Source: Pseudomonadota bacterium (lineage in GTDB: Bacteria > Bdellovibrionota_C > UBA2361 > OMII01). Taken from it: a DNA stretch of 64,000 nucleotides. Under the pieces are notes generated by a model. The model worked only from the letters and a program-made list of their open reading frames with translations. It ran no database searches and had not been told where the DNA came from. This document shows, one piece after another, positions 27,918 through 33,432 of the stretch (the first letter of the stretch is position 1; every line of letters starts with the position of its first letter). The stretch spans positions 64,693 to 128,692 of the forward strand of contig JBEGVS010000064.1 in NCBI GenBank assembly GCA_041178185.1. The letters are read 5' to 3'. The position numbers were made by a program, and so were the translations under genes.

Positions 27918-28061
27918 CCTTGGCACGACACATCACCGCCCTCGCGTTGGAGGATGACCATGGCTCGCCACCGTTGATTGCAACACAAAAAACACCTTTC
28001 TATGAGGGACTATCCGAGACTATGCTACCTCCACAATCGCCACAACCGAGAGGTAACTGAC

Positions 28062-28454
28062 ATGGGAACTAAGATCGAGTGCTTTGAGTCTATCACCAAC
28101 GCGCCTAAGGCGGTCGGCCCATATTCTCCGGTTGTGAGAGCTGGAAACCTCGTATTCCTGTCAGGCCAGGTGGGCATACATCCCGAGACCTCGCAATTAG
28201 TGGGAGCTGGCATCCAAGAGCAAACCGAGCAGGTTCTAAAGAATCTTCAAACAGTGCTGGCAGGGGTCGGACTCTCGTTTAAGGATGTCGTAAAGAGCGT
28301 TATCTTCCTGACAGACCTCTCGAATTTTCAGACCGTTAACAAGATCTACGGAGAGGCGCTTCAGGGCCATAAACCTGCGCGCTCAACCATCCAAGTGAGC
28401 GCCCTACCGCTCGGCGCGATCGTTGAGATAGAGATGATTGCAGTAGCGGGTTAG
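28062..28454 (+). CDS. ridA: RidA/YjgF-family reactive-intermediate deaminase
   Basis: APKAVGPYSPVVRAGNLVFLSGQ...IEMIAV. The ATG at 28062 is preceded by GAGAGG; the track's longer ORF begins in the upstream intergenic region. Confidence 0.85.
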   Translation: MGTKIECFESITNAPKAVGPYSPVVRAGNLVFLSGQVGIHPETSQLVGAGIQEQTEQVLKNLQTVLAGVGLSFKDVVKSVIFLTDLSNFQTVNKIYGEALQGHKPARSTIQVSALPLGAIVEIEMIAVAG

Positions 28455-28659
28455 CGTTTGTGCGCTGTCGGCGCATAGCCCCCTCGCACGCGGTGCTCCG
28501 AGCGTCCTTCGTGCAGCACGAGAAAAAACTCCAACAGAGAGGACGTTTCCACTCGGTTGTGTCGCTACACAAACACAAATTCGGATCTCTTAATTAAATT
28601 TGATCAACACGAGAAGACTGGGCAGAGCCTAAAGTGAATGGCGGAGGGAGGATCGTTGC

Positions 28660-28688
28660 GGGGTCTACTCCGCGCGGGAGTAGACCCC
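28660..28688. other. perfect 12-bp GC-rich hairpin (GGGGTCTACTCC gcgcg GGAGTAGACCCC) with no U-tract on either strand
   Basis: An inverted repeat read directly from the sequence. It lies inside a 600-bp ORF-free convergent intergenic region. Confidence 0.5.
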
Positions 28689-29052
28689 ACTCCGAAGAAG
28701 CAAATTAGGGAACCAGAACCAACTACTTAAAACCCTGTCAAAGTGCGCAAGTAGATACGCTTCACAATGTGAAGACCTCGCTCACCAGTACGACAGAAGT
28801 AATTCCTATAGCCGACATGGATCACCTCCTTTCTCAAAGCAGGCCCCCTTCCCTATAGGAGAGAAGGTTCGCCTGAACTAGGCGACCGAACTTAGATCAT
28901 CCGTTGAAAGACGATCGAGAACTTGGAATTAGAATGAAGAGGGAACGAAGATAGCGCAATGACTAAAATGCGATTGCACTCAAACTTTTCCCTCTTGCGT
29001 GCGTTCAATCTGAATCCGCGCTGTGGGAATTCCAACGAGCTCTTCAACGCAG

Positions 29053-30249
29053 CTACTCAACCAACAACATCAGCCCTTTGAGATAGTCTCCCTCGGGATG
29101 AAAGATGCTCGTCGGATGACATGGAGCTTGATGCAGGAAATCAACAATGCGCACAAACCTTCCTGCAGAGACCGCCGCACGCATCACCGCGTCTCGAAAC
29201 ATCTCTCGCGATATAAGCTGCGAGCATGAAAAGGTAGCGAGCGTTCCGCCCGGTTTAATTTTCTTGAGAGCCAGCGCATTGATCGTCTCATACCCTCGCA
29301 TCGCCCGCTGAACCGCCCTTTGGTGCTTAGCGAAGGCCGGAGGATCGAGCACGATCAGGTCGAATGTATCTGGAATTTGCGTGAGGTAGCTGAAACAGTC
29401 GGCGACTTCGGCGTGATGAGGAGCACTCGCAAAGTTGGCCACAACGTTCTGTCGACAGAGATCGATAGCTGACTTTGAGGCGTCCACCGAGGTGACAGAC
29501 TCGGCCCCGCCTGCAAACGCGTACACCGAAAACGCGCCGGTGTAGCAGAAGGCGTTCAAAACGTGTTTACCACCCGCCGCATCTCGAATCTTTTGTCGAT
29601 TAACCCTCTGGTCAAGAAAAAATCCGGTCTTTTGACCCGCGGTGATGTCTGCCAAAAAGCGCAACCCATTCTCTGAGAATGAGACGACCTGCGAGGGCTC
29701 CGCCACCATCGGCTCACCCTCTCCATCCCCGCTGGCCTCCTCTATTTGAGATTCCACTCGACGGAATACAACCTTTGAGAGACCTAGTTCGGCTATCTCC
29801 AGAAGGCTCTCCTGGATCGATTCTTTAACCCGCCACATGCCAGCCGAGTGGCATTGCACCACTGCGGTATCACCGTATAAATCTATGACGAGACCCGGTA
29901 ACTCATCCCCCTCAGCGTGAACCAATCGAAATCCATTGGTCGAGGGATTCCCGACAAGCCCTAGCCGCTGTCGCACCTGCGCGGCGTTGAGGATCTTCGC
30001 ATGAAGCAACTCTCCCTCGTCCCTCACCTCTTCAAAGGAGAGAAGTCGAACGGCGATCCCACGAGTTCCCCAGTGGCCACACCCCAGCAAAGCGCCATCT
30101 TTGGAACGAACATCGACGAGACAACCTCGCTGTAACGTGCCTCTACGATCGGCTATAGCCCCCGAAAATATCCATGGGTGGCGACGCTTGACGGCTGATT
30201 CTCGACCTTGACGAAGGACTACAACGGGACGCGCGGATTTTTCACTCAT
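29053..30249 (-). CDS. rlmI: RlmI/RlmK-type class I SAM-dependent 23S rRNA methyltransferase (PUA-like N-terminus + MTase)
   Basis: A 398 aa ORF with an N-terminal PUA-like region and a C-terminal Rossmann MTase (VLNAFCYTGAFSV, DPPAF). Confidence 0.8.
   Translation of the reverse strand: MSEKSARPVVVLRQGRESAVKRRHPWIFSGAIADRRGTLQRGCLVDVRSKDGALLGCGHWGTRGIAVRLLSFEEVRDEGELLHAKILNAAQVRQRLGLVGNPSTNGFRLVHAEGDELPGLVIDLYGDTAVVQCHSAGMWRVKESIQESLLEIAELGLSKVVFRRVESQIEEASGDGEGEPMVAEPSQVVSFSENGLRFLADITAGQKTGFFLDQRVNRQKIRDAAGGKHVLNAFCYTGAFSVYAFAGGAESVTSVDASKSAIDLCRQNVVANFASAPHHAEVADCFSYLTQIPDTFDLIVLDPPAFAKHQRAVQRAMRGYETINALALKKIKPGGTLATFSCSQLISREMFRDAVMRAAVSAGRFVRIVDFLHQAPCHPTSIFHPEGDYLKGLMLLVE

Positions 30250-31665: not shown

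Positions 31666-33432
<1,767 letters not shown>

Follow-up and report, generated by a model that had tools for sequence, protein, structure and literature searches.

A conserved, structured small RNA family pairing a complement of the 16S rRNA tail with a fixed-length mini-ORF in uncultured freshwater bacteria

The closest described analogue of the element reported here is the CC2171 small RNA (sRNA) family (Rfam RF01867; CCNA_R0051, with coding sequence CCNA_03965, in Caulobacter), which is expressed in Caulobacter and Methylorubrum and whose function is unknown (bioRxiv 10.1101/2022.01.24.477521). Ribosome profiling of Caulobacter recorded CCNA_R0051 as a 193-nt primary transcript, flagged 'Translated CCNA_03965' (PMC4117421, Dataset S7). 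The rpsO (S15) mRNA of E. coli is a pseudoknotted translational operator (PMC3985624, PMC8470358), and extended, start-proximal Shine-Dalgarno (SD) pairing is functional in S. aureus, for which extended SDs have been described together with control by upstream open reading frames (uORFs) (PMC13009471). Here we describe a small gene of about 275 nt, running from ~28924 to ~28650 on the minus strand of a 64,000-nt stretch of contig JBEGVS010000064.1 (the window) that comes from an uncultured metagenome-assembled genome (MAG) deposited as 'Pseudomonadota bacterium'. We suggest that it specifies a conserved, structured small RNA with a maximal ribosome-binding site and a fixed-length mini-open reading frame (mini-ORF), an identity that is well supported and that we hold with high confidence. 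The RNA family is new, being absent from Rfam 15. A seemingly empty 600-bp spacer thus becomes a gene, the member of a well-supported RNA family with 24 loci and five covarying helices.

The original prediction, made from the letters of the window, had drawn attention to an exact 16-nt copy of the 16S rRNA 3' tail in the gap between ridA and rlmI. The 16-mer, GGATCACCTCCTTTCT, is indeed present at 28819-28834 on the plus strand, and the match reaches 17 nt once T28818 is added, the tail used for matching being the generic bacterial 16S 3' end. On either strand of the 64-kb window there is no further match longer than 10 nt to the 16S tail or its complement. Read on the minus strand, the same stretch is AGAAAGGAGGUGAUCC-AUG (28834..28816), complementary to the whole single-stranded 16S tail; the complementarity spans 17 nt (28818-28834), and the GGAGG core lies 6 nt from the AUG (28818..28816). 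The predicted duplex between this SD and the 16S tail (15 nt) has an energy of -25.5 kcal/mol, compared with -6.6 to -12.6 kcal/mol for ordinary sites of 5-7 nt, and the ordinary genes of the window offer 3-7 nt of complementarity when the best of four candidate starts is taken for each. Whatever matches the 16S 3' tail on one strand reads as an SD on the other, and both strands should therefore be read before rRNA fragments are invoked.

The element was recovered in 23 further loci, some of them near-duplicates, which makes 24 with the window. Two routes led to them: syntenic contigs were fetched via RlmI homologues (69-92% identity), and metagenome contigs were scanned for GGAGGTGATCC-N7-CTATAGG, a pattern whose 25 matches comprised 16 true homologues and nine chance matches in coding sequence, the latter being discarded. 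Every locus comes from freshwater or lake metagenomes, and in those whose contig also encodes RlmI, this protein is 68-92% identical to that of the window. Viral contigs scanned for the motif gave no match, and a scan of GTDB genomes with RlmI returned, among the matches listed, only relatives at 49% identity or less, mostly from Bacteroidota and irrelevant to the element. With R1, a covariance model derived from the family, each locus yields exactly one copy (100-215 bits), the match in the window covering 28713-28924 on the minus strand (214.8 bits). The 14-nt complement and the AUG are invariant in the window and all 23 further loci, and the flanks diverge. AAAGGAGGUGAUCCAUG is likewise invariant in the family, as is AAAGGAGGUGAUCCAUGUC with the CUAUAGGA that follows it; the linker immediately before it is variable in length as well as in sequence. 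Since AAAGGAGGTGATCCATG is invariant across 23 further loci in related bacteria, chance is excluded as its origin. One contig of the same strain (L082, Logan SRR35180140) has its 3' end exactly at ...GGGGGCCTGC, directly before TTTGAGAAAGGAGG; a possible cause is a break in the assembly at the SD region, and the position may equally be a coincidence.

The features of the gene and its surroundings are given below, from the promoter-like block to the 3' end and then the flanking genes. The helices P1, P3 (in two parts), P4, P6 and P5 and the candidate pseudoknot were tested on an alignment of 21 distinct sequences.

~28963-28969, minus strand: A/T-rich ATTTT block, directly upstream of the -35-like box
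28954-28959, minus strand: -35-like box TTGCGC, its TTGC invariant in the family (alignment of 24 loci)
28931-28936, minus strand: -10-like box CATTCT, 17 nt downstream of the -35-like box
28895-28916, minus strand: helix P1 (GAUCGUCU / GGAUGAUC) and its loop; 8 pairs, 6 changed on both sides, 93.5% of cells paired
28878-28884, minus strand: single-stranded CGCCUAG, invariant in 21/21 distinct sequences
28840-28875, minus strand: helix P3, two stems and a loop
28871-28875 / 28840-28844, minus strand: P3 outer stem CAGGC/GCCUG, compensatory changes in 3/5 pairs
28863-28867 / 28847-28851, minus strand: P3 inner stem CCUUC/GAAGG, compensatory changes in 3/5 pairs, 97% of cells paired
28852-28862, minus strand: P3 loop UCUCCUAUAGG, 11 nt
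28853-28859, minus strand: 5' strand of the candidate pseudoknot, CCUAUAG in the P3 loop, complementary to CUAUAGG
28819-28832, minus strand: extended SD AAAGGAGGUGAUCC, invariant in the family, reverse complement of the 16-mer
28762-28818, minus strand: mini-ORF of 18 codons (MSAIGITSVVLVSEVFTL), AUG at 28816-28818, stop UGA at 28762-28764
28805-28811, minus strand: 3' strand of the candidate pseudoknot, CUAUAGG in codons 3-5
28735-28796, minus strand: 3' domain (P4, P6, P5)
28792-28796 / 28735-28739, minus strand: P4, CUGUC/GACAG, compensatory changes in 2/5 pairs, 64% of cells paired
28777-28785 / 28743-28751, minus strand: P6, compensatory changes in 7/9 pairs
28760-28774, minus strand: hairpin P5, stop codon in its 3' arm, compensatory changes in 3/6 pairs, 93-98% of cells paired
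28751-28758, minus strand: near-invariant GUAUCUAC
28705-28735, minus strand: G/U-rich linker (GGGUUUUAAGUAGUUGGUUCUGGUU...) of variable length
28692-28704, minus strand: pyrimidine-rich, anti-SD-like segment UUUGCUUCUUCGG before the terminal hairpin, conserved in most, not all, homologues
28653-28696 (core 28660-28688), minus strand: terminal GC-rich hairpin with no U tract
29053-30249, minus strand: RlmI-type PUA/SAM rRNA methyltransferase, below the NCBIfam equivalog cutoffs; relatives are named RlmI by JGI
Ending at 28454, plus strand: Rid-family gene (ridA), TIGR00004 at 146.8 bits, above its cutoff

The proposed structure is reflected in the alignment. Over its 45 pairs, 87.1% of cells are paired; with the 3' partners shifted by 1-3 columns the figure is 42-50%. 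These slid controls have covariation scores of 0.09-0.13, compared with 0.40 for the structure itself, and none of 500 shuffles reaches the observed values. Compensatory changes on both sides are seen in 24 of the 45 pairs and are spread over five helices. P1, the inner P3 stem and P5 are recovered independently by RNAalifold, and the window sequence taken singly folds better than its shuffles (z = -3.4). RNAalifold also proposed a P2 helix (GCCU/AGGC), which clashes with the outer P3 stem; we prefer the latter on account of its compensatory changes. A small hairpin that the program drew across the SD and AUG is invariant and therefore uninformative. The pairing of just 64% in P4 follows from the poor alignment of distant sequences there. 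G.U cells number 97 and A.C cells 28, and 87% of cells are paired on the minus strand as opposed to 80% on the other; this G.U excess, together with the weaker pairing on the other strand, indicates that the folded molecule is the window's minus strand.

Several segments of the RNA could close over the ribosome-binding site. CCUAUAG in the P3 loop and CUAUAGG in codons 3-5 form a standard pair in 99% of cells, one locus (L113) having a single broken and uncompensated pair, and the loop lengths of 3 nt, 1 nt and ~28-35 nt would suit an H-type pseudoknot holding the SD and AUG in its long loop. GGUCGCCU (28880-28887), which comprises CGCCUAG and its flank, can pair with AGGUGAUC of the ribosome-binding site, and we hypothesize that the CGCCUAG region is a candidate cis anti-SD. 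In single-sequence folds of several homologues the SD is paired either with this region or with GGUUUGCUUCCU before the terminal hairpin, and on such modelled folds gated access to the ribosome-binding site is plausible. In the window's own minimum-energy fold, the partner of the SD is a further anti-SD-like segment, GAUCCUCCCUCCGCC, which the minus strand carries after the terminal hairpin (28640-28654) and which is found in the window and the near-identical L081 only, not in other homologues. The usual 3' pyrimidine segment has a C-to-U change in the window strain, GCUUCUUCG instead of GCUUCCUCG, and GAUCCUCCCUCCGCC may be an acquisition that compensates for it. As this CCUCC segment is not conserved elsewhere, it was left out of the model. 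A T7-promoter-like string, CUAUAGGGA, was judged coincidental.

The ends of the RNA are marked by features whose position is conserved. The family pattern of the -10-like box is roughly CAnnAT/CAnnCT, the loci read by eye all retaining A2 and T6, and from spacing alone the transcription start is predicted at ~28924 +/- 3. No site of the element came out of a strict sigma-70 and terminator consensus scan, and the boxes are therefore best described as conserved and promoter-like rather than as a proven promoter. At the other end, most homologues have strong GC-rich hairpins of unrelated sequence at a similar distance, and the terminal hairpin is probably the 3' end of the RNA or its terminator. 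The linker between P4 and this hairpin is tandemly duplicated (CAGUGUUUGUUGA, two to three copies) in one sublineage (L095, L098 and L088) and carries (GUA)n in L113. The N-run scaffold gaps of L088 and L083 fall in the linker or the hairpin, which suggests assembly trouble there.

The gene keeps its sequence and orientation while its neighbours change. Upstream there is rlmI (+), a DUF4397 gene (+) or a divergent metallophosphoesterase gene (-), the upstream neighbour being divergent in L092, L097, L104, L113 and L114. The downstream neighbour, wherever readable, is convergent (ridA, leuA or a HAD hydrolase gene) with the exception of L116, where a co-oriented acs-like gene follows, with a GC hairpin and then UCUCUUUU intervening. 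Position-conserved promoter-like boxes and a terminal hairpin, covarying helices and changing neighbours are, taken together, what is generally expected of an independent sRNA gene. Where a contig carries rlmI, the RNA gene lies ~0.2-3 kb downstream of it. A GDSL-lipase and DUF4397 pair is inserted between the two in some lineages (L086/L087, L090/L091 and L116), and in L090 and L091 the convergent neighbour is leuA, not ridA.

The mini-ORF that follows the extended SD is conserved in length. All 23 complete copies keep the frame open over 17-18 codons, and the other two frames contain stops in 20/20 and 13/20 sequences. A UGA at codon 19 ends the frame in all but two copies, which have 17 codons, one with UGA at codon 18 (L101) and one with UAG at codon 18 followed by the usual UGA (L105). 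The sole indel within the ORF is of 3 nt (L101), and the larger insertions of L085 and L090 sit just past the stop. The peptide, on the other hand, is unconstrained: the encoded products range from MSAIGITSVVLVSEVFTL to MSAIGNQSVSVERGALTP and MSAIGNKSASHVNEVLEV, residues 6-18 vary freely, and position 10 may be V, A, E, G, N, S or R. Entropies at the three codon positions (10.97/13.23/13.55) are not protein-like, and the synonymous fraction is only slightly raised, at 0.20 compared with 0.12 in the other frames. Substitutions in the ORF coincide with compensatory changes in P4, P6 and P5. It appears probable, by analogy with CC2171, that the ORF is translated, and we think that decoding probably matters rather than the peptide. 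A prfB-like CUUUGAC after the ORF is present in the window only and was set aside.

The comparison with CC2171 shows a shared design in RNAs of different build. RF01867 matches the window at 28661-28841 on the minus strand with 18.2 bits (E = 0.19), against a gathering score of 75, the aligned part being confined to the SD string and the terminal hairpin. We compared four alphaproteobacterial CC2171-related loci, from Methylobacterium, Azospirillum, Sphingobium and Skermanella chromids (L118-L121), of which L118 scores above the RF01867 gathering score (84.3 bits) and the other three below. All four carry GAAAGGAGGUG(A/G)UC, a GUG or AUG at the same spacing, an ORF of 24-26 codons beginning MSHC, and a terminator, and in all four the long-range helix uses the first codons. 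In the three sub-threshold copies the first 37 nt at the 5' end and the GACAAUGGA-terminator module are nonetheless unmistakable, and in Skermanella hflX stands immediately upstream of the copy; the CC2171 peptides are not covered by any NCBIfam model. R1 gives no match to L118-L121 at E<=10, from which we conclude that the two families share design, not ancestry. Both are small stand-alone transcripts, of 159-193 nt in CC2171 and ~275 nt here, and both have a near-identical extended SD (GAAAGGAGGUGAUC[C/U] in CC2171) with the start codon at the same spacing, as found in the window. In both, a very short ORF (24-26 codons compared with 18 here) has first codons that are conserved at the RNA level and that pair, or in the present RNA may pair, with a distant segment, and a GC hairpin stands at the end. 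They differ in that the CC2171 leader before the SD is short and unstructured, whereas here it is a covarying 5' domain of ~100 nt (P1, P3) with a candidate pseudoknot, and in that the partner of the start-proximal segment is downstream in CC2171 (GACAAUGGA) and the candidate partner upstream here (the P3 loop). The long-range helix UCUCAUUGUC / GACAAUGGA, which closes the CC2171 RNA before its terminator, is absent from the window, where the G/U-rich linker stands between the analogous P4 (CUGUC/GACAG) and the terminal hairpin. Finally, CC2171 is alphaproteobacterial, whereas the family described here comes from uncultured freshwater MAGs labelled 'Pseudomonadota bacterium'. The translation record of CCNA_R0051 is, by analogy, the best available support for translation of the mini-ORF.

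We propose, with a probability of about 0.6, that the gene encodes a tiny translated and structured RNA that is remodelled by the passing ribosome and whose ribosome-binding site, probably gated in cis, docks the full 16S tail. The RNA would consist of a 5' domain (P1, CGCCUAG, P3), a central AAAGGAGGUGAUCC-AUG, and a 3' domain (P4/P6/P5, the linker and the terminal hairpin). Given the complementarity, a 30S subunit would dock through a 14-15 bp duplex between SD and anti-SD, initiation would take place at the AUG, and the short ORF, conserved in length and not in peptide, would be translated. P4, P6 and P5 each have their 5' arm within the ORF, so a translating ribosome must unfold the 3' domain; its passage would melt the three helices, freeing or remodelling the conserved 3' segments, and the RNA would in this way report or exploit ribosome loading. 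Access would probably be gated by the pseudoknot between the P3 loop and codons 3-5, together with the anti-SD-like segments.

A number of observations weigh against this proposal. The SD is invariant, which makes covariation impossible for the cis anti-SD pairings, and since both strands of the candidate pseudoknot are invariant as well, it too is without covariation support. In thermodynamic folds the GGAGG core is mostly paired in cis, with a mean unpaired probability of 0.14, so that the site may often be closed. Conservation of the peptide ends with MSAIG, whose codons coincide with an RNA motif, and second codon positions are as variable as third ones, which makes a functional peptide unlikely. 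The UGA lies inside the conserved 3' arm of P5 (GUGAG), and its conservation can therefore be explained without translation. The terminal hairpin has no U tract and the terminator scan was silent there. Transcription, the ends of the RNA and its translation are all, in addition, predicted.

The main rival to a translated RNA is an untranslated decoy or sponge that captures and retains 30S subunits, or free or immature 16S 3' ends, in trans, much as in the entrapment known from some translational operators; the AUG and ORF would then be incidental, or would only seat the subunit. Much of the evidence suits it: the conserved complement of 14-15 nt goes far beyond the needs of initiation, the peptide is unconstrained, the candidate pseudoknot and anti-SD-like segments that flank the site suggest regulated exposure, and a second family, the unrelated CC2171, has arrived at the same long SD by convergence. 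We nevertheless consider a decoy unlikely, for the invariant AUG at ideal spacing, the open ORF, the fixed position of the stop and the 3-nt indel all point to decoding, the CC2171 analogue is recorded as translated, and an RNA present in single copy would need to be very abundant to titrate ribosomes. Decidedly improbable is an ordinary small-protein gene, in which the 18-residue peptide (MSAIG...) would be functional and the long SD would serve high expression. The perfect SD, the AUG and the conserved ORF length and stop are what such a gene would have, the synonymous fraction of frame 0 is slightly higher (0.20 vs 0.12), and every copy except one has L or F at position 16. However, residues 6-18 are free to vary, being hydrophobic in some copies and charged in others, variability at codon position 2 equals that at position 3, compensatory pairing in P4, P5 and P6 accounts for the substitutions, and a covarying 5' structure of ~100 nt and a conserved 3' domain would be superfluous for a plain mRNA.

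Readings of the plus strand fare worse. The original prediction had offered three explanations for the 16-mer: a non-coding RNA, a mimic of the anti-SD, or a remnant of an rRNA operon. The first came nearest, as the element is a conserved, structured small RNA gene, although it was read on the plus strand and the gene lies on the opposite one. The mimic fails because the minus strand, the one predicted to be transcribed, is instead the full complement of the anti-SD, that is, an extended SD. A 3' untranslated region of ridA, or a plus-strand sRNA, that paired as an anti-SD mimic with the SDs of mRNAs has in its favour that ridA ends 365 nt upstream on the same strand, that the sequence is identical to the anti-SD, and that alphaproteobacterial sRNAs with CCUCC motifs exist. 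We regard it as very improbable, since the G.U excess (97 vs 28) favours the minus strand, the orientation and sequence of the element are kept where leuA, HAD or acs replaces ridA, the promoter-like boxes are on the minus-strand side, and AUG, ORF and stop are sensible on the minus strand only. An rRNA-operon remnant, or a chance match in plain spacer, would account for the exact identity of 16-17 nt to the 16S tail, but is refuted. The calculation that a pre-specified 16-mer would occur by chance about 3e-5 times is arithmetically right, and conservation and covariation now rule chance out, the stretch and ~250 nt around it being conserved and covarying in 23 further loci (RlmI 68-92%). The plus-strand sequence upstream (...ccuauagccgaca) is, as had been remarked, unlike that of 16S (...GGGGAACCUGCGGC); the flanks show no similarity to the small-subunit rRNA or the internal transcribed spacer and are conserved as a different, covarying structure, and no small-subunit model, nor any other Rfam rRNA model, matches at E<=10. 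Rfam 15 at its gathering thresholds found no family in the whole window, rRNA included, and at E<=10 over 28300-29200 it gave no rRNA, only the sub-threshold CC2171 match and two chance matches. An empty Rfam search had been proposed as one sign of a coincidence; Rfam is empty above threshold, and yet the element is conserved and real. A full-text literature search with a 13-mer returned 16S primer papers only.

Returning to the translated, cis-gated RNA that we favour, several known systems share parts of its design. Like rpsO, it has a hairpin loop complementary to the first codons, with SD and AUG placed in what would be the connecting loop of an H-type pseudoknot, a fold with which the sequence is compatible here. 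The rpsO pseudoknot traps the 30S subunit in an inactive complex. Unlike in rpsO, no ribosomal protein gene lies downstream, and only an 18-codon ORF follows. Leader peptides and uORFs (attenuators, erm leaders, the S. aureus rbf uORF) likewise have a tiny ORF, a strong or extended SD and a poorly conserved peptide, and here too passage of a ribosome through the ORF would remodel the RNA structure downstream; they differ in that the present RNA has no co-oriented gene downstream, except in L116, where a terminator-like hairpin separates the two. Dual-function sRNAs and type I toxin mRNAs (SgrS/SgrT, RNAIII/hld, SR1/SR1P, Ibs/Sib, hok) are short, structured transcripts with a very small ORF, and in type I toxin mRNAs the SD is sequestered in cis by distant segments, a possible likeness to the RNA described here. 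However, its peptide is neither conserved nor consistently hydrophobic as in the toxins, and neither an antisense partner nor repeat copies were seen at the loci analysed.

The defining feature of the family, an invariant complement of the whole 16S tail directly before an AUG and a fixed-length mini-ORF, recurs in the non-homologous CC2171, the function of which has been open since 2008. Two independent families with this design suggest that maximal pairing between SD and anti-SD on tiny transcripts has a selectable function. A bolder idea, to which we give low odds, is that the two form a convergent class of ribosome-directed riboregulators, in which docking of the full 16S tail (~-25 kcal/mol) within a switchable cage of pseudoknot and anti-SD would act as a sensor or sink for free 30S subunits or for immature 16S 3' ends, with the mini-ORF as the step of release or readout. 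The family is in any case a naturally occurring setting in which to study the influence of very long SD duplexes on how 30S subunits are captured, seated at the start site and released.

The surroundings of the gene are largely as originally described: ridA (+) and rlmI (-) flank the gap, which measures 598 bp, and ORFs of 60 aa or more are absent from 28579-29022. At its longest, the ridA ORF starts from TTG 27978 (158 aa; 27978-28454, plus strand), and relatives are called at 130 aa; an alternative start at 28062 has a GAGGU site upstream and is probably the true one. Between the ridA stop and the terminal hairpin (28455-28650), the window has ~200 nt that are missing from several relatives, L085 having ~40 nt; this stretch includes the hairpin GUGCUCCGAGCGUCCUUCGUGCAGCAC, its minus strand carries GGAGUUUUUUCUC, and it may hold the ridA terminator. 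The second-longest SD-like string of the window is AGAAAGGAGG (10 nt, 33332-33341, plus strand), within the 3' end of a CTP synthase ORF; it precedes the next ORF start (33435) by ~94 nt and is thus too distant to be the ribosome-binding site of that ORF.

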